A DNA stretch of 32,620 nt from a virus (taxonomy: Duplodnaviria; Heunggongvirae; Uroviricota; Caudoviricetes), in the IMG/VR virus record IMGVR_UViG_2861048470_000001, one strand, 5' to 3'. Within the stretch, counting starts at the first letter, position 1, and every line of letters begins with the position of its first letter. Positions 5,930 to 24,232 of the stretch are shown here, in pieces. The translations under genes and the position numbers were made by a program. The notes beneath the pieces were generated by a model, which saw only the letters and a program-made list of their open reading frames with translations, had not been told where the DNA came from and did no database searches.

Positions 5930-6059
5930 CCGCGCGCAATGTTGAGTATGCTTAAGATATAGCGTTTACAATTCCAGGCTTGAAGGCTCGGGTATAGGTA
6001 AAAATTGAGTGTTCTCGGTTGCTTTTCGTGACATAAGAGGACAGCAAAGGAGGTTGAGT

Positions 6060-6530
6060 ATGTACAGCCCATTGAACATCGCGAATAAGTTTATAGAACT
6101 TGCTTGCGCGGCTGGTATGCCAATCACCCAGATGCAGGCACAAAAGCTGACCTATATAGCACATGGTATAAATCTGGGTTACAAAGGGACGCCTTTGTTA
6201 ACGACACCAGTTTGTGCATGGCGTTATGGTCCAGTGGTTCCAGTTCTGTATAACTATCTTAAAGTTTATGGCCGTAGTCCCATAACACAACCAATACAAG
6301 TTCCATCGGCAATTTCTCAGGAGTTTGACCCTATGACTGAGCAGTTGCTGCAGAACGTTTATAACGTTTACGGTAAATATACCGCTGAGGATTTATCTGC
6401 TTTCACACATCGTGAAGGTACTCCTTGGAAGCAAGCAATGGATAGTCGTATGGATATCATTCCTGATTCCGTTATTCAGGATTACTATCAAAAGCTGCTA
6501 CACGGCGATAGCAATTGCATCGGACTATGA
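6060..6530 (+). CDS. Panacea-domain (DUF4065, SocA/GepA-like) protein; candidate antitoxin
   Basis: About 156 aa from the ATG at 6060, preceded by AAGGAGG. Sequence KLTYIAHGINLGYKGTPLLTTPVCAWRYGPVVPVLYNYL fits the Panacea pattern as I recall it (K.L.Y.A....G.PL....AW..GPV...Y). AT-rich. Confidence 0.65.
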   Translation: MYSPLNIANKFIELACAAGMPITQMQAQKLTYIAHGINLGYKGTPLLTTPVCAWRYGPVVPVLYNYLKVYGRSPITQPIQVPSAISQEFDPMTEQLLQNVYNVYGKYTAEDLSAFTHREGTPWKQAMDSRMDIIPDSVIQDYYQKLLHGDSNCIGL

Positions 6531-6545
6531 GTCCGAATTAAGATA

Positions 6546-6570
6546 ACCCCGTCTATGTACGGGGTTTTTT
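6546..6570 (+). terminator. Rho-independent terminator-like hairpin plus T6
   Basis: ACCCCGT-ctatgt-ACGGGGT followed by TTTTTT; the next ORF's ATG follows immediately at 6571. Confidence 0.6.
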
Positions 6571-7143
6571 ATGCCTGACGATAATAAGAAAGTGACAGCT
6601 GAATTTGATAAAGACCTTCTCAGACGATTGCAGCAAGCTGAGCAGAATCTGATAACTGCCTCTGCGGCTTTGGGAGATGAGGGCTGTTGGGATGAAGAAT
6701 CTCATGAGCCTGAGTCTGTTGAGGACGCTGTTGATGAAATGCAAAAGGAAGAAGAGGATGCTGCGACCATGCAGCGTTTGGATTTATCCAGTCTTAATTT
6801 TCAAATTGCTGAATTGAGTCGCTGTGTTGAAACTATAAGCACTAACCTTGAAAGCGTACAGGCAGAAACCAAAAGAAAAAATGCGGAAACCGACGGCCTG
6901 CTTACGGACAATGAGCTCCGTAGAACTATGGCTGATAAAACATATCAATTCATGATTGTTTGGTGTTGTTTTGTCGGCTGGGTCATATTTATGTATGTAT
7001 TGAAAAAAGATTTTGATCCACCAGAAACAATTATCATTGCGCTTATGGGAACCACAACTGTGAGTATTGTGGGATTGGTTGGGTTTGTTGTTAGTGGTTT
7101 GTTCAAAAGCAACAATAAACCTTCTGGCGACAATAAAAATTAA
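6571..7143 (+). CDS. Acidic coiled-coil protein with two C-terminal transmembrane helices; candidate membrane toxin/effector partner of the Panacea protein
   Basis: 190-aa ORF; N-terminal half charged and helical (LLRRLQQAEQNL..., EEDAATMQRL...); C-terminal hydrophobic stretches YQFMIVWCCFVGWVIFMYVL and IIIALMGTTTVSIVGLVGFVVSGLF. Start uncertain: an internal in-frame ATG (MQRLDL...) has a GAGGA upstream. Confidence 0.6.
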   Translation: MPDDNKKVTAEFDKDLLRRLQQAEQNLITASAALGDEGCWDEESHEPESVEDAVDEMQKEEEDAATMQRLDLSSLNFQIAELSRCVETISTNLESVQAETKRKNAETDGLLTDNELRRTMADKTYQFMIVWCCFVGWVIFMYVLKKDFDPPETIIIALMGTTTVSIVGLVGFVVSGLFKSNNKPSGDNKN

Positions 7144-8553: not shown

Positions 8554-10325
8554 CAGTAAAACTCCAGAATGGTGGATGTCAGCGGGGTGCTGATACCGGC
8601 GGTGAGTGGCTCATTTAACAGGGCGTGCATGGTCGCCCAGGCGAGGTCGGCGTGGCTGGCTTCCTCGCTGCGGTTGGCCTCATAGGTGGCGCTGCGTCCG
8701 CTGCTGGTCATGGTCTTGCGGATAGCCATAAACGAGCTGGTGATGTCGGTGGCGCTGACGTCGTATTCCAGACAGCCACGGCGGATAACGTCTTTTGCCT
8801 TGAGCACCATTGCGGTTTTCATTTCCGGCGTGTAGCGGATATCACGCGCGGCGGGATAGAACGAGCGCACGAGCTGGAACACGCCGACACCGAGGCCGGT
8901 GGCATCAATTCCGATGTATTCGACGTTGTATTTTTCGGTGAGTTTGCGGATGGATTCAGCCTGGGTGGCAAAGTCCATGCCTTTCCACTGGTGACGCTCA
9001 AGTATTCTGAATTTGCCACCGGCCACCACCGGCGGTGCCAGCACCACGCATCCGGCACTGTCGCCACGGTGTGACGGGTCGTAACCAATCCATACCGGGC
9101 GGGAGCCGAACGGATTGGCGGCAAACGGCGCATAGTCTTCCCATTCTTCCAGCGTGTCGACCATGCAGCGTTGCAGCTCCTCGAACGGGAACACCGACGC
9201 CTTGTCGTCAACAAATTCACACATGAACAGGTTTTTAAAATCGTCGGCGCTGTTTTCACGTTTGAGCTGCTCAATGTCGAACAGCGTGCAGCCACCTTTC
9301 AGGGCGTCCTCAATGGTGACAATCTGCCGCCACTGGCCGTCCGCACAGAGAAGCCCCCCGGCAAGGGCGTTATGACTGACGTCGATTTCCACACGTTCGG
9401 CGGCGCTGGCACGTCCCCGGTTGAACAGTTCACCTGACCAGAACGGGTAGGCGTCGTGCGCCAGCGTGGACGGGGTGGAGAAATAGGTCGAGCGCAGGTG
9501 ACTCTGTGAGGCCATACCTGATGCCACCTTACGCAGTACCTGAAAATTCGGGATCCAGAAAATCTCATCGACGTACAGGTCGCCGTTATGGCTCTGCGCG
9601 GTGTTGGAGTTGGTGCCGAGAAAAATCAGTTTTGCGCCGTTATTGCCCAGGACAATCGGGTCACCGGTAAGGTCAACGTCCACCAGACGGGCAAAGGCGA
9701 TGATGTATTCGCGGAACACATACGCCTGCGTTTTACTGGCCGACAGAAAAATCTGGTTATGACCGGTTTTCAGGGCGCGCAGCAGTGCCTCGCGGGAAAA
9801 ATAAAACGTCGCGCCAATCTGGCGGGATTTCAGGATATCGCGGATGCGGTGCTCAAGCCCGGCGCGATACCAGTGCAACTGATAGTCGAAAGACTGCTCA
9901 AAGAAAATCTGCTCCAGCTTTTCGATGGCTTCGTCACTGAAAAAATTCTTTTTCGGTTTGCGACGCCCGCCTTTGTTGCGGTTAGCGACGTTCGGATTAA
10001 GGTCTGCCTCGTTGCCGGTCTGGCTGTAGCGATTTACCCGTGCCAGTCGTTCAATCTGGCGTCCCAGCAGGTCAATTTCCTTGAAGTCACCGCCGGTTTT
10101 CTGCGGTTTGATGATGAGCTGGGTCAGCCGCGCTTCCAGGCTCATTTCGACACGGCTGATGGGGGCAACGCTGTCCCAGCCGTCGCGCTGTTTCCAGCTC
10201 TGCACCGTCGGGCGTTTCATCTGCAACATGGCGGCAATCTGCGGCACGGAAAACCCCTGCCAGTACAGCAGCGCCGCCTGACGACGCGGGTCGTGTAAAA
10301 GAGTGGTGTCTGTGGTGATGGTCAT
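8553..10325 (-). CDS. P: Terminase large (ATPase) subunit P
   Basis: About 590 aa from the internal Met (MTITTD...); transcribed divergently from O, as in P2. Confidence 0.9.
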   Translation of the reverse strand: MTITTDTTLLHDPRRQAALLYWQGFSVPQIAAMLQMKRPTVQSWKQRDGWDSVAPISRVEMSLEARLTQLIIKPQKTGGDFKEIDLLGRQIERLARVNRYSQTGNEADLNPNVANRNKGGRRKPKKNFFSDEAIEKLEQIFFEQSFDYQLHWYRAGLEHRIRDILKSRQIGATFYFSREALLRALKTGHNQIFLSASKTQAYVFREYIIAFARLVDVDLTGDPIVLGNNGAKLIFLGTNSNTAQSHNGDLYVDEIFWIPNFQVLRKVASGMASQSHLRSTYFSTPSTLAHDAYPFWSGELFNRGRASAAERVEIDVSHNALAGGLLCADGQWRQIVTIEDALKGGCTLFDIEQLKRENSADDFKNLFMCEFVDDKASVFPFEELQRCMVDTLEEWEDYAPFAANPFGSRPVWIGYDPSHRGDSAGCVVLAPPVVAGGKFRILERHQWKGMDFATQAESIRKLTEKYNVEYIGIDATGLGVGVFQLVRSFYPAARDIRYTPEMKTAMVLKAKDVIRRGCLEYDVSATDITSSFMAIRKTMTSSGRSATYEANRSEEASHADLAWATMHALLNEPLTAGISTPLTSTILEFY

Positions 10326-10498
10326 GAATACCTCGCCGTGATGAATACACGGCAAGGCTACTGAGTCGCGCCCCGCGATTCGCTAAGGTGCTGTTGTGTC
10401 AGTGATAAGCCATCCGGGACTGATGGCGGAGGATGCGCATCGTCGGGAAACTGATGCCGACATGTGACTCCTCTACTCACTATTCAGGACTCCTGACA

Positions 10499-11353
10499 AT
10501 GGCTAAAAAAGTCTCAAAATTCTTTCGTATCGGCGTTGAGGGTGACACCTGTGACGGGCGTGTCATCAGTGCGCAGGATATTCAGGAAATGGCCGAAACC
10601 TTTGACCCGCGAGTCTATGGTTGCCGTATTAACCTGGAACATCTGCGCGGCATCCTGCCTGACGGCATTTTTAAACGTTATGGCGATGTGGCCGAACTGA
10701 AGGCCGAAAAGATTGACGATGATTCGGCGCTGAAAGGCAAATGGGCGCTGTTTGCGAAAATCACCCCGACCGATGACCTTATCGCGATGAACAAGGCCGC
10801 GCAGAAGGTCTATACCTCAATGGAAATTCAGCCGAACTTTGCCAACACCGGCAAATGTTATCTGGTGGGGCTGGCCGTCACCGATGACCCGGCAAGCCTC
10901 GGCACGGAATACCTGGAATTCTGCCGCACGGCAAAACACAACCCCCTGAACCGCTTCAAATTAAGCCCTGAAAACCTGATTTCAGTGGCAACGCCTGTTG
11001 AGCTGGAATTTGAAGACCTGCCTGAAACCGTGTTCACCGCCCTGACCGAAAAGGTGAAATCCATTTTTGGCCGCAAACAGGCCAGCGATGACGCCCGTCT
11101 GAATGACGTGCATGAAGCGGTGACCGCTGTTGCTGAACATGTGCAGGAAAAGCTGAGCGCCACTGAGCAGCGACTCGCTGAGATGGAAACCGCCTTTTCC
11201 GCACTTAAGCAGGATGTGACTGACAGGGCGGATGAAACCAGTCAGGCATTCACCCGCCTGAAAAACAGTCTCGACCACACCGAAAGTCTGACCCAGCAGC
11301 GCCGCAGCAAGGCCACCGGTGGTGGCGGTGACGCCCTGATGACGAACTGCTGA
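10499..11353 (+). CDS. O: Capsid scaffolding protein O
   Basis: Starts MAKKVSKFFRIGVEGDTCDGRV... as I recall for P2 gpO; about 284 aa. Confidence 0.9.
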   Translation: MAKKVSKFFRIGVEGDTCDGRVISAQDIQEMAETFDPRVYGCRINLEHLRGILPDGIFKRYGDVAELKAEKIDDDSALKGKWALFAKITPTDDLIAMNKAAQKVYTSMEIQPNFANTGKCYLVGLAVTDDPASLGTEYLEFCRTAKHNPLNRFKLSPENLISVATPVELEFEDLPETVFTALTEKVKSIFGRKQASDDARLNDVHEAVTAVAEHVQEKLSATEQRLAEMETAFSALKQDVTDRADETSQAFTRLKNSLDHTESLTQQRRSKATGGGGDALMTNC

Positions 11354-15824: not shown

Positions 15825-16254
15825 TGCCGTCACGGTGCTGAAAACTAACCCCGATATGCTGCGGATATTCGTGGATCACGGGAGTATTGCCTCCACGCTG
15901 GCGGCGTCGTTGTCATTCGAAAAGCGTTACACGCTCAATGTCATTGTGACCGACTTTACCGGTGATTTTGACCTGCTCATCGTGCCGGTGCTGGCGTGGC
16001 TGCGGGTAAATCAGCCCGACATCATGACCACCGACGCAGGTCAGAAAAAGGGCTTCACGTTTTATGCAGACATCAATAATGACAGCAGCTTTGATATCAG
16101 CATCAGCCTGATGCTGACCGAGCGCACGCTGGTCAGTGAGGTGGACGGCGCACTGCATGTGAAGAATATCCCGGAACCCACGCCGCCGGAGCCGGTCACC
16201 CGCCCGGTGGAGCTTTATATCAATGGCGAACTGGTGAGCAAGTGGGATGAATGA
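15787..16254 (+). CDS. R: Tail completion protein R
   Basis: 155 aa; P2 gpR size and position. Confidence 0.85.
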   Translation: MLKPDSLRRALTDAVTVLKTNPDMLRIFVDHGSIASTLAASLSFEKRYTLNVIVTDFTGDFDLLIVPVLAWLRVNQPDIMTTDAGQKKGFTFYADINNDSSFDISISLMLTERTLVSEVDGALHVKNIPEPTPPEPVTRPVELYINGELVSKWDE

Positions 16255-16699
16255 GTTTAAGCGTTTTGAAGACCGGCTGACCGGACTGATTGAATCGTTG
16301 TCACCGTCAGGGCGTCGGCGACTGAGCGCCGAACTGGCGAAACGTCTGCGGCAGAGTCAGCAGCGCCGGGTGATGGCACAGAAAGCCCCGGACGGCACAC
16401 CCTACGCACCACGCCAGCAGCAGAGCGCCAGAAAAAAGACCGGTCGCGTTAAGCGAAAAATGTTTGCGAAACTTATCACCAGTCGTTTTTTGCATATCCG
16501 CGCCAGCCCTGAACAGGCATCAATGGAGTTTTACGGCGGGAAGTCACCGAAAATAGCCAGTGTGCATCAGTTCGGTCTGTCGGAAGAAACCCGGAAAGAC
16601 GGTAAGAAAATTGATTATCCGGCGCGTCCTCTGCTCGGCTTTACCTGTGAGGATGTGCAGATGATTGAAGAGATTATCCTGGCTCACCTTGAGCGTTAG
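16247..16699 (+). CDS. S: Tail completion protein S
   Basis: 150 aa; P2 gpS size and position. Confidence 0.85.
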   Translation: MNEFKRFEDRLTGLIESLSPSGRRRLSAELAKRLRQSQQRRVMAQKAPDGTPYAPRQQQSARKKTGRVKRKMFAKLITSRFLHIRASPEQASMEFYGGKSPKIASVHQFGLSEETRKDGKKIDYPARPLLGFTCEDVQMIEEIILAHLER

Positions 16700-16729
16700 T
16701 TTTATCCAGGCAGAGGCTGATGCGCAATT

Positions 16730-16764
16730 AAACATTGAGCGGCCATGCTGGGCGCTCAATGTTT
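16730..16764. terminator. Bidirectional terminator hairpin between convergent S and the 16771-17556 gene
   Basis: Perfect 12-bp inverted repeat AAACATTGAGCG (16730-16741) / CGCTCAATGTTT (16753-16764) with an 11-nt loop. Confidence 0.6.
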
Positions 16765-16770
16765 AGAGGT

Positions 16771-17556
16771 TTATGAGTGATTTTTATTTGATGCTTTGTA
16801 TTCTAAAACCTTCTTATTGGCGTAAAAGAATTTTGTATATGACAGGAATATAACCAGACCTGAAGTGAAATAGACGAGGGATAGTATTAATAATGCTTTT
16901 TTGTGACTGTTATTATCTTTAATCTCCTGGCTTAACCATTCGGAGTCCTCCTCGTTTAGCTGTAAGAGCTTATTGCAGGCGATTTCAGGAAGTGTGTCTT
17001 TTATAAATACGTTTTGCAGTCTCTTGCAATCGGCAAGGCTATAAGTTTTATTAAATTCAACTGCTTTATTTTTGAAGGATAAAAGAACTTTGTCACTATA
17101 AACATAGTACATCATATTTTTATATGGTATGCCTATGGCATCTCTTACTATAGCGGATTGTTTGTTGTGTATATAACATGCGAAGAGAATATAAATAATA
17201 CTGGCCAGAATTACAATTGTTGTTTTAATTATGTGTGGTGGTTTTGTTATGTCACCCCAGATGCGAGTAAGGAAAAAATACGATGTTTTTAGTTTTCCAT
17301 CAATCAGTCCCTGCTGTATCATTCTCACATTTTCAATGCCTGATACATTGATTCCGTTAATTATTTTAAATAGTTGAATGTCGCGCCACTCGCGGTCAAG
17401 TCTTTTTAATTTTTTGTCTGAATATCCAAAATTGAAATAATGTGCAATAAGCCTCATAAGGTTACTTTTACCAAAGCTAAAAAATGCTAATACTGCAAAG
17501 CTACAAAGGAAAAAAACGATTAGCCCCCACACATTAGTCACATTATAGCTGACCAT
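16771..17556 (-). CDS. Accessory membrane protein with three predicted transmembrane helices, unknown function (P2 orf30 position)
   Basis: 261-aa ORF on the strand opposite to the flanking tail genes; strongly AT-rich; hydrophobic segments near residues 9-28, 120-140 and 225-245; no motif I recognise. Confidence 0.65.
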   Translation of the reverse strand: MVSYNVTNVWGLIVFFLCSFAVLAFFSFGKSNLMRLIAHYFNFGYSDKKLKRLDREWRDIQLFKIINGINVSGIENVRMIQQGLIDGKLKTSYFFLTRIWGDITKPPHIIKTTIVILASIIYILFACYIHNKQSAIVRDAIGIPYKNMMYYVYSDKVLLSFKNKAVEFNKTYSLADCKRLQNVFIKDTLPEIACNKLLQLNEEDSEWLSQEIKDNNSHKKALLILSLVYFTSGLVIFLSYTKFFYANKKVLEYKASNKNHS

Positions 17557-17639
17557 TACGCTCTCCTTGAATGTTGTCTGGTAGTTCTACAAATGAATCC
17601 AGATAGCATAACTTTTATATATTGTGCAATCTCACACGC

Positions 17640-18275
17640 ATGAACACTCTCGCAAATATTCAGGAACTCGCGCGCGCACTGCGCAACATGATTCGCACCG
17701 GCATTATCGTCGAAACCGACCTTAACGCCGGTCGCTGCCGCGTGCAGACCGGCGGCATGTGCACCGACTGGCTTCAGTGGCTGACCCATCGCGCAGGACG
17801 TTCGCGCACATGGTGGGCACCTTCCGTGGGGGAACAGGTGCTGATTCTGGCCGTGGGTGGTGAACTCGACACGGCGTTCGTTCTGCCGGGGATTTATTCC
17901 GGCGATAACCCCTCGCCGTCTGTGTCGGCGGATGCCCTGCATATCCGTTTCCCTGACGGGGCGGTGATTGAATATGAACCCGAAACCAGTGCACTCACGG
18001 TAAGCGGAATTAAAACGGCCAGCGTGACGGCTTCTGATTCTGTTACTGCCACGGTGCCGGTGGTCATGGTGAAAGCATCAACCCGCGTCACCCTGGACAC
18101 CCCGGAGGTGGTCTGCACCAACAGGCTGATTACCGGCACGCTGGAAGTGCAGAAGGGCGGGACGATGCGCGGCAACATTGAACACACCGGCGGTGAACTC
18201 TCATCAAACGGTAAGGTACTGCATACCCATAAACACCCCGGCGACAGCGGCGGCACAACCGGGAGTCCTCTATGA
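17640..18275 (+). CDS. V: Baseplate spike/assembly protein V
   Basis: Starts MNTLANIQELARAL... as I recall for P2 gpV. Confidence 0.9.
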   Translation: MNTLANIQELARALRNMIRTGIIVETDLNAGRCRVQTGGMCTDWLQWLTHRAGRSRTWWAPSVGEQVLILAVGGELDTAFVLPGIYSGDNPSPSVSADALHIRFPDGAVIEYEPETSALTVSGIKTASVTASDSVTATVPVVMVKASTRVTLDTPEVVCTNRLITGTLEVQKGGTMRGNIEHTGGELSSNGKVLHTHKHPGDSGGTTGSPL

Positions 18276-18619
18276 CAGCGCGTTATCTCGGAATGAATCG
18301 CAGTGATGGCCTGACGGTCACTGACCTCGAGCATATCAGCCAGAGTATCGGCGATATCCTGCGCACACCAGTCGGCTCACGGGTGATGCGTCGTGATTAC
18401 GGCTCGTTGCTGGCGTCAATGATTGACCAGCCGCAGACCCCGGCGCTTGAGTTGCAGATTAAGGTCGCCTGTTACATGGCGGTGCTGAAATGGGAACCCC
18501 GCGTCACCCTGTCATCCGTCACCACTGAGCGCAGTTTTGACGGGCGAATGACGGTCACGTTAACCGGCCAGCACAACGACACCGGCCAGCCACTTTCGTT
18601 AACCATCCCTGTGAGTTGA
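18272..18619 (+). CDS. W: Baseplate protein W
   Basis: 115 aa; overlaps the V stop; P2 gpW position. Confidence 0.85.
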   Translation: MTARYLGMNRSDGLTVTDLEHISQSIGDILRTPVGSRVMRRDYGSLLASMIDQPQTPALELQIKVACYMAVLKWEPRVTLSSVTTERSFDGRMTVTLTGQHNDTGQPLSLTIPVS

Positions 18620-23185: not shown

Positions 23186-24232
23186 GTGATATTTTCTACA
23201 AAGAAAAATATATGGAATAACGTCATCGCGGGTACAAAAATGACTATAAAAAAAACATATGTAACACCAACAGAAATAGTGAAATATTTTTATGACAAAC
23301 CGGAAAACGATAACGTAAAAGAGAGAAAAACAATTGAGAGCCTGACCCGTCTCAAACCTGAGTGGGAAAATACTCTCGATATGATGAAGTTAATACGCAA
23401 TTGTGAAAAGCTAGCAACTGAAGGTATTTTAATGGAATTATCTTCAGGACATACTCTTTTGGACCGTTGCTATTTCGCACCGAATTTCAATGAATCAGAT
23501 GCGAAATATGGAAAGTATGATTTTATAGCTGATGGATTTGAGTCAATCATAGACCGCCTTAGTCCTTCCGTTTTACCTGTTGTTGTTGAAAAAAGTGATG
23601 GTTCACATGATCTTGGTACTAGTTTTATTGTTGGGAATAACCACACGATATTTACAGCCAGACATGTTATTGAAGACATGAAGAGTATCAGGATACTTAG
23701 AGCTGGTGGTGAGGCTTTACCAATACATAAAATCTTTGTATCTAACGATGAACGTATTGATATCGCTTTAGTTTTCACAACCATTCCGAATGAAGATAAT
23801 ATTCAACCACTTAAGGTCTCAACCAAAGCCTCGGTACTGGATGAAATTTTATCAATAGGATTTCCACCCATTCCAGGATTTGATGCATTAAAGTTATATG
23901 ACGTTTCGCATATAAATTCGTTTGTCCGACTGTCAAAGGGGCGAATTGTTGGTTCTGGTCACTCTTACTTAGATTCACAAGACTTTTTATTATTCAATGC
24001 TAGGGTTAAGGGGGGGAATAGCGGTGGCCCTATAATTAACAAATACGGCTTTGTTGTTGGTATGCTTGTACAAATACCAATATCATCTGAGGACAGTTCA
24101 AAGATTGATAACCTTGGATATGGTATAGCTGTAACAGGAAAAAGCCTGCTGGATGCCATTACATTTACAGAAAATGGCCGCGAATTAACACTCACCGACC
24201 GAGGAAATGGAGAATATTCAACTCTAGCATAA
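23186..24232 (+). CDS. Trypsin-fold (S1-like) serine protease with an N-terminal domain of unknown function; accessory gene at the Z/fun locus
   Basis: ORF with a His-Asp-Ser triad in chymotrypsin order and spacing: TARHV (His), DIALV (Asp), GGNSGGP (Ser). AT-rich. Start is either GTG at 23186 or ATG at 23240. Confidence 0.7.
   Translation: MIFSTKKNIWNNVIAGTKMTIKKTYVTPTEIVKYFYDKPENDNVKERKTIESLTRLKPEWENTLDMMKLIRNCEKLATEGILMELSSGHTLLDRCYFAPNFNESDAKYGKYDFIADGFESIIDRLSPSVLPVVVEKSDGSHDLGTSFIVGNNHTIFTARHVIEDMKSIRILRAGGEALPIHKIFVSNDERIDIALVFTTIPNEDNIQPLKVSTKASVLDEILSIGFPPIPGFDALKLYDVSHINSFVRLSKGRIVGSGHSYLDSQDFLLFNARVKGGNSGGPIINKYGFVVGMLVQIPISSEDSSKIDNLGYGIAVTGKSLLDAITFTENGRELTLTDRGNGEYSTLA

Follow-up and report, generated by a model that had tools for sequence, protein, structure and literature searches.

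What is an AT-rich membrane-protein gene doing on the minus strand between two tail genes of a P2-like prophage? The question is raised by a 32,620-nucleotide stretch of viral DNA (IMG/VR virus record IMGVR_UViG_2861048470_000001, Caudoviricetes; hereafter the window), in which the 940 nt from the stop codon of the tail completion gene S to the start codon of the baseplate spike gene V (16700-17639) hold a gene for a 261-aa protein at 16771-17556. The first part of the answer is that this gene is already known and annotated: the feature is the orf30 cassette of phage P2, carried here in a P2-like Escherichia coli prophage, and its detection is hence a rediscovery. Positions 16200-18300 of the window are 98.2% identical, without a gap, to positions 8868-10968 of the P2 genome (AF063097), and the features of the P2 record map to 16729-16765 (a hairpin), 16771-17556 (orf30) and 17571-17598 (a binding site for the activator Ogr). 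The protein is 97.7% identical to P2 Orf30 (AAD03281.1) over residues 1-261, with six substitutions that all fall within residues 113-141, and it matches PHROG 2407 over its whole length (E = 3e-148, 1-261 of 261); the Ogr site is identical to that of P2, and the hairpin differs by a single base, at 16752. The gap between S and V is itself an already published moron site, as the position of orf30 has been described as one of three regions of P2-like phages with horizontally acquired genes whose functions are unknown (PMC3091744; PMC6823313). P2 is a model phage, yet its GenBank record notes orf30 only as “nonessential,” and our literature search turned up no work on what the gene does or how it is expressed, nor any transcript data for it. 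Also not found described in the literature searched were the breadth of the Orf30 family, its tie to the Pfam family DUF6216, its fidelity to the S-V slot, the swapping of divergent alleles and the predicted topology of the protein.

The answer favored here to the remainder of the question is that Orf30 would be made in the lysogen and would act at the inner membrane to protect the lysogen from other phages, interfering with genome entry in the manner of a superinfection-exclusion protein rather than by killing the cell. The chances of any anti-phage role are put at about even, and the exclusion mechanism itself is proposed more tentatively than that. The gene in question had been largely well described by a first-pass annotation made from the letters of the DNA, which took it to encode a 261-aa protein with three hydrophobic helices and no recognizable catalytic motif but did not identify it as P2 orf30. 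The open reading frame (ORF) does begin with ATG and does encode 261 aa on the minus strand, and it is preceded by an AAGGAG ribosome-binding site (17563-17568, minus strand), 6 nt 5' of the start codon, with AAGGAG-like sites also found 5' of orf30 homologues. It is indeed far more AT-rich than its neighbors, with a GC content of 33.3% (34.4% at third codon positions), whereas S reaches 53.9%, V 59.7% and the window as a whole 51.7%, and the trough in a sliding GC profile, which falls to 0.33 only at 16800-17400, is confined to the S-V interval. Three hydrophobic segments peak at residues 9-27, 109-127 and 221-239 (Kyte-Doolittle 19-residue means of 2.25-2.41), in keeping with a predicted inner-membrane protein with three transmembrane (TM) segments, and searches of Pfam and PADLOC gave the protein no catalytic domain.

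The first line of evidence comes from the slot. Of 78 IMG/VR contigs encoding a gpV with 95% identity or more to that of the window, 53 (68%) had an empty interval between S and V, 16 (21%) held orf30 there and nine held other AT-rich cargo, with respective interval lengths of 66 nt, 940 nt and 838-2036 nt; this survey of occupants had been suggested by the first-pass annotation. In the empty-slot phages pro483 and fiAA91-ss, exactly 66 nt separate the S stop codon from the V start codon, and these have no sequence in common with the 940-nt interval. The exchangeable unit is therefore the whole interval at 16700-17639, comprising the hairpin, orf30 and the version of the V promoter (P_V), with its Ogr site, that belongs to this phage. 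The other cargo consists of a Pycsar cyclase (PycC, E = 1e-128), an AAA+TIR protein and an AAA protein that both match the PADLOC candidate PDC-S59, a RelA/SpoT protein matching the PADLOC candidate PDC-S33 and, further, three unknowns. The slot thus elsewhere carries recognized anti-phage genes, as expected of a defense hotspot. The possibility that all non-empty slots contain hidden members of the Orf30 family was rejected, the nine other cargoes being unrelated to it (E > 0.1 against the family profile). In four contigs with cargo other than orf30 (L040, L072, L091 and L102), gpS is 54-57% identical to that of the window and gpV 96-98%, which indicates that slot exchange can bring with it a different S allele. 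The 66-nt empty spacer (801-866 in L002 and L003, and in the 53 IMG/VR contigs) has features of its own, namely a TGTGCC...GGCACA dyad that is likely an Ogr site and, immediately 5' of the V start, a GC-rich hairpin, GCCGCCGG-N6-CCGGCGGC; a GC hairpin of similar kind stands before V in Serratia-type loci, and P2 has none.

The second line of evidence is the distribution of the gene. In complete E. coli genomes, orf30 DNA was found in 463 of 5426 (8.5%), always on the chromosome; P2-type V was found in 1582 of these genomes and, when places rather than genomes are counted, orf30 accompanies V at 481 of 1809 (27%). Such a presence, in about 27% of E. coli P2-type V loci and 16 of 78 close relatives, for a gene labeled “nonessential,” speaks against a universally conserved P2-like core gene, which the first-pass annotation had named as an outcome that would overturn its proposal. 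Nor does a one-off acquisition describe the locus, as divergent homologues fill the same slot in Serratia, in Sodalis and in many uncultivated P2-like phages. Among 29 contexts examined, which span several genera and include Serratia and Sodalis genomes as well as contigs found with sub-clade profiles, 26 have the family gene next to V, on the opposite strand and between V and S. The flanking proteins in those contexts are 55-85% (gpV, gpJ and gpR) and 43-56% (gpS) identical to those of the window, and the Orf30 homologues 21-31%, where BLAST aligns them at all. Strict confinement of the family to the S-V slot was rejected, since Pantoea copies follow int, one metagenomic copy has non-phage surroundings and the Enterobacter copy lies at a contig end. 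Every family member measured has a GC content of 30-38%, as compared with 40-64% in the flanks; low GC is a trait that the family maintains and does not mark the gene as newly arrived. At some loci, the Orf30 homologue shares its slot with additional cargo (L020 4965-5899, L024 6760-8400, L026 4507-6258 and L023 7085-7879): in one case an HExxH metallopeptidase-like protein and a lipoprotein, in two a pair of 104 and 113 aa that by eye resembles a toxin-antitoxin module together with a protein of 210-261 aa, and in one a 264-aa membrane protein.

Within this conserved position the gene itself changes sharply. Two loci whose flanks are 94-95% identical (L005 and L006) carry homologues of only 46% protein identity, and a second pair (L017 and L021) repeats the pattern, such that across both pairs flanks of 94-96% identity enclose homologues that are 46% identical or barely alignable. 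Among the 16 E. coli-type alleles, the ratio of nonsynonymous to synonymous divergence (dN/dS) stands at 0.43 for the whole gene; it falls to 0.15 in loop 2 and 0.27 in loop 1 and rises to about 1.1 across the N-terminus and TM1, compared with 0.06 for gpS and 0.18 for gpV. Purifying selection in the soluble domains (0.15-0.27), together with the absence of orf30 from the empty slots of 53 of the 78 close relatives, supports the conclusion that orf30 is a real, selected, non-core accessory gene. The divergent homologues on near-identical flanks and the ratio near 1.1 in the N-terminus and TM1 may represent the signature of an arms race, in which the fast-changing parts of Orf30 would track variable components of other phages. 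Positive selection in TM3 and the tail, where dN/dS reaches 3.6, was considered and rejected, as that ratio stems from a synonymous divergence (dS) near zero and indicates mosaic alleles. Indeed, dS among the 16 alleles is 0.009 in TM3 and the tail (16771-16900) and 0.158 in the N-terminus and TM1 (17470-17556), a contrast indicative of mosaic alleles in which a recombination break falls within orf30.

A third line of evidence is retention of the gene in prophages that have otherwise decayed. In S. odorifera and in IMG/VR contig L025, V, S and R are fragmented and the Orf30 homologue is intact; in S. rubidaea, a prophage remnant with only an S fragment again retains an intact homologue; and the defective P2-like prophage of E. 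coli B (L115, NZ_CP115178.1 2092745-2111530) has kept both orf30 and the V operon. A 186-like prophage of Pantoea has its family member as the last gene of a cI-yebY-int operon, where it overlaps the stop codon of int. Because the gene is retained in dead prophages and is placed in a lysogenic operon in Pantoea, Orf30 is probably made in the lysogen, as its orientation had led the first-pass annotation to propose. The remnants have further features in common: those of S. odorifera (L007/L008) and S. rubidaea (L009) both adjoin the same Asp-Al_Ex transporter gene, and both keep an intact ogr. In the E. coli B prophage, the deletion runs from within the portal gene to within S, and the TO slot is occupied by an ABC-three-component system.

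What sort of membrane protein is retained can be approached through the family. Although a word-indexed search returned five clusters only, an exhaustive profile search returned 44 matching cluster representatives; full-length representatives are about 240-270 aa long, and those aligned keep three TM segments. In an alignment of 28 sequences, which outside the E. coli group are 16-40% identical to Orf30, the residues G68, G87, C194 and I212 are invariant, the most conserved motif (D-x-Q-L-F/Y-R-x-x-N-G-I/V-N-V ... D-A) lies in loop 1, and loop 2 carries a cysteine pair, near position 177 (25 of 28 members) and at C194 (all 28). Across the family, loop 1 carries a net charge of +5.1, loop 2 one of -0.3 and the C-terminal tail one of +2.2. 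From this charge pattern and the cysteine pair, a topology is predicted in which the N-terminus is out, loop 1 in, loop 2 out and the C-terminus in, with a probable periplasmic disulfide. Between TM1 and TM2, Orf30 would thus possess an 80-residue helical cytoplasmic domain bearing the most conserved motif; between TM2 and TM3, an 85-residue periplasmic beta-meander with two short helices, tied by the cysteine pair; and after TM3, a basic cytoplasmic tail. An AlphaFold2 model built from the 28-sequence alignment (predicted local distance difference test, pLDDT, 83.6; predicted template modeling score, pTM, 0.72) has a helical cytoplasmic domain, a loop 2 folded as a four-strand meander with two short helices, and a long helix through TM3. 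As for remote homology, 10 of the 28 members give weak collinear matches to DUF6216 (PF19723), among them the Sodalis member P0028, itself located in an S-V slot, which scores 28.9 bits (gathering threshold, 27.3) over residues 10-255 against positions 10-265 of 270. The Orf30 family therefore appears distantly tied to DUF6216, by transitive homology only, as the window protein itself has no match to it. DUF6216 is an uncharacterized membrane-protein family with no assigned function, mentioned by one paper in the literature searched. A profile search of PDB sequences returned a single chance match (E = 0.085), and a fold search against solved and predicted viral structures returned no neighbor of known function. 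The three TM segments anticipated by the first-pass annotation were thus borne out and extended to an N-out/C-in prediction and a weak DUF6216 tie, while the comparison it had called for yielded no relative of known function or fold.

Taken together, retention in decayed prophages, the Pantoea operon, fidelity to the S-V junction, sharp allele divergence and a slot shared with defense genes favor an envelope function that benefits the lysogen, most likely against phages, and for Orf30 both superinfection exclusion and abortive infection would be reasonable guesses. The orf30 cassette is an accessory unit lodged between the O late operon, closed by S and the hairpin, and the Ogr-activated V operon. 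Orf30 and DUF6216 may constitute an unrecognized prophage envelope-immunity family, and the S-V slot a third P2 defense hotspot that this family founded and repeatedly occupies, with alleles swapped under antagonistic coevolution and with an Ogr site over the 5' end of orf30 that would allow shut-off or switching when the phage turns lytic. As a whole, this wider proposal is possible but falls on the doubtful side of even. If an anti-phage role is true, the P2 defense map would gain a membrane-acting system and a third hotspot, and the tie of one family to the S-V junction across genera would be explained. Slot fidelity, allele swapping, retention in dead prophages, the lysogenic operon in Pantoea and the predicted topology in any case turn an orphan ORF into a testable hypothesis.

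Several observations weigh against this proposal. The window protein has no match in Pfam (E <= 1), PADLOC or NCBIfam, and the 28 family members, when compared with known superinfection-exclusion and abortive infection (Abi) models in Pfam and PADLOC, gave chance-level singletons only. The literature searched records no anti-phage phenotype for orf30, published screens of P2 lysogens included. Phage P2_AC1 carries orf30, and cloning the TO-hotspot system by itself was enough to reproduce the protection seen in its lysogen (PMC9122126); likewise, when fosmids from 71 E. coli strains were selected with T4, lambda vir and T7, the P2-prophage systems recovered all came from two other slots (PMC9519451). 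The most conserved part of Orf30 is predicted to be cytoplasmic, a placement as compatible with a sensor or a host partner as with an entry block. Finally, a minus-strand search for sigma-70 promoters upstream of orf30 found none convincing, the best match being 8 of 12 positions with a 19-nt spacer.

The control region also bears on the first of the rival explanations. According to the P2 record, S ends the O operon and V starts the V operon, and orf30 does not interrupt a rightward late operon, as the first-pass annotation had it, but sits between two, after the putative O terminator and before P_V. The spacer at 17557-17639, where it had suggested mapping an orf30 promoter, is taken instead by the core region of P_V (17599-17639, plus strand) and the Ogr activator site (17571-17598, plus strand; dyad TTGT-N11-ACAA), which was located by mapping the AF063097 annotation through a gap-free 98% alignment. 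As the ATG of orf30 lies 15-42 nt from the Ogr site, any promoter driving the full-length gene has to overlap P_V or be located within V. Activation of full-length orf30 by Ogr was rejected, because the dyad center is only about 28 nt from the ATG and cannot sit at -55. In relatives, the spacer between orf30 and V measures 82-148 nt except at one locus and keeps a CACAACA Ogr half-site, and the Serratia clade has an extended -10 element, TGCTACAAT, 28 nt before the ATG. With regard to V itself, the P2 record places the transcription start of the V operon at the first V coding base (17640), which would make the V mRNA leaderless, and in the program-made ORF list V reaches back as far as a TTG at 17622.

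Such closeness to the Ogr site would be expected if Orf30 were an accessory of the phage cycle, transcribed late from the shared P_V/Ogr region and tuning lysis or the envelope, or blocking injection of progeny into lysing cells. The control region is always back-to-back with P_V, P2 offers no independent consensus promoter, 26 of the 29 contexts keep the gene beside V, and both Serratia remnants keep ogr too. However, the dyad center lies where it cannot serve a full-length orf30 transcript, the gene is annotated as nonessential and its slot is empty in 68% of close relatives, it persists in prophages that are no longer able to develop, and the Pantoea copy belongs to a lysogenic operon. A role in the phage cycle is accordingly judged unlikely.

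An alternate scenario retains the anti-phage role but replaces exclusion with abortive infection, whereby a phage product would be detected by the cytoplasmic domain and the TM helices would oligomerize and depolarize the membrane, killing the infected lysogen before progeny are released. This is compatible with a single polytopic membrane protein that has a conserved cytoplasmic domain, and with a slot in which abortive-type systems (the Pycsar cyclase and the TIR protein) are also found; persistently low GC would in addition fit tight, low expression of a potentially toxic protein. However, no partner gene is consistently adjacent in the contexts examined, PADLOC detects no similarity to known Abi effectors, and a conserved periplasmic disulfide domain would have no obvious role in a model of cytoplasmic sensor and pore, all of which renders this scenario rather improbable.

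It is similarly improbable that Orf30 is a lysogenic-conversion factor with no connection to phages, raising host fitness through tolerance of colicins, tailocins, bile or membrane stress, or through niche colonization. Retention in decayed prophages would be expected of such a factor as well, orf30 is widespread in E. coli from many hosts, and a membrane protein with a predicted periplasmic domain would be suited to the task. However, extreme allele divergence on near-identical backbones is seen more typically under antagonistic coevolution than with a housekeeping-like benefit, and the family is almost confined to the genomes of P2-like phages. Finally, that orf30 is a functionless AT-rich remnant surviving by chance in a recombination hotspot would suit a gene with no known function and no domain match that is dispensable for P2, but is very improbable given purifying selection in both soluble domains, the fact that the 28 aligned members, at identities of 16-30%, have length, three TM segments, motifs and the cysteine pair in common, a confident AlphaFold2 model and ORFs that remain intact inside decayed prophages.

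The slot is anchored on the left by gpS, the last gene product of the O late operon (16247-16699, plus strand; 150 aa, 98% identical to P2 gpS), and on the right by gpV, the first of the V late operon (17640-18275, plus strand; 211 aa, 99.5% identical to P2 gpV). Between S and orf30 stands the hairpin at 16729-16765, common to the convergent transcripts of both genes, which lies 5 nt past the orf30 stop codon and is exactly the “putative rho-independent terminator for O operon” of the P2 record. It consists of a 13-bp perfect stem, one G.G mismatch, three further pairs and a 3-nt loop, with a folding free energy of -25.4 kcal/mol on the plus strand (z = -3.9 against shuffled controls) and -22.7 kcal/mol on the minus strand (z = -3.1). 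The first-pass annotation had described a bidirectional terminator with a 12-bp stem; the strong hairpin stands, with a stem one pair longer, but its function in both directions is only plausible. For want of a clean T-run behind it, the hairpin went uncalled in a consensus terminator scan; the T-run in each direction amounts only to AAUGUUUA, partly within the stem. An RNA element on either strand was also considered and rejected, as an Rfam search of both strands gave the hairpin only sub-threshold chance matches.

Two other variable slots of the window are likewise occupied. In the TO hotspot, flanked by gene A and the portal gene (6009-7143, plus strand), lie a gene for a 173-aa SocA/Panacea-domain protein (Pfam E = 2e-17) and, downstream of it, a 190-aa ORF with a weak DUF2975 match, at a GC content of 40-44%; the pair looks like a Panacea-type toxin-antitoxin module in place of the old and tin genes of P2. 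In the Z/fun slot, after the tail-fiber assembly gene (23186-24232, plus strand), a gene of about 36% GC encodes a 348-aa trypsin-like peptidase (Trypsin_2, E = 2e-17) that has weak PADLOC matches to regions of RT-Protease_XI, LmuA and HamA and may be regarded as a candidate defense gene.

Of the known systems, the nearest is P2 itself, whose orf30 has the same position and orientation between S and V, the same hairpin and the same Ogr site; the prophages differ in the remaining slots, where P2 has old/tin and fun and the prophage described here has the Panacea-domain pair in the TO slot and the trypsin-like peptidase in the Z slot. A moron, as defined by Hendrix and colleagues, is an independent transcription unit inserted between phage genes. 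The orf30 cassette resembles one in its deviant GC, its presence/absence polymorphism and the putative terminator hairpin at its 3' end; however, orf30 has no evident promoter of its own, and the cassette also carries the essential late promoter P_V, such that it is not a simple add-on. P22 SieA, T4 Imm and HK97 gp15 are small, nonessential, phage-encoded inner-membrane exclusion proteins without catalytic motifs. Orf30 is likened to them in the proposed blocking of genome entry at the inner membrane, although no sequence or fold similarity to them was detected with any of the libraries searched and no exclusion phenotype has been reported for P2 orf30. With old, tin and fun(Z) of P2, orf30 shares the status of AT-rich nonessential cargo in the three recognized variable regions (PMC3091744; PMC6823313), whereas exclusion phenotypes are on record for those genes, and in their slots unrelated genes replace one another (PMC9122126; PMC9519451). 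In contrast to the old/tin and fun slots, the S-V slot is one in which divergent homologues of a single family recur across genera.

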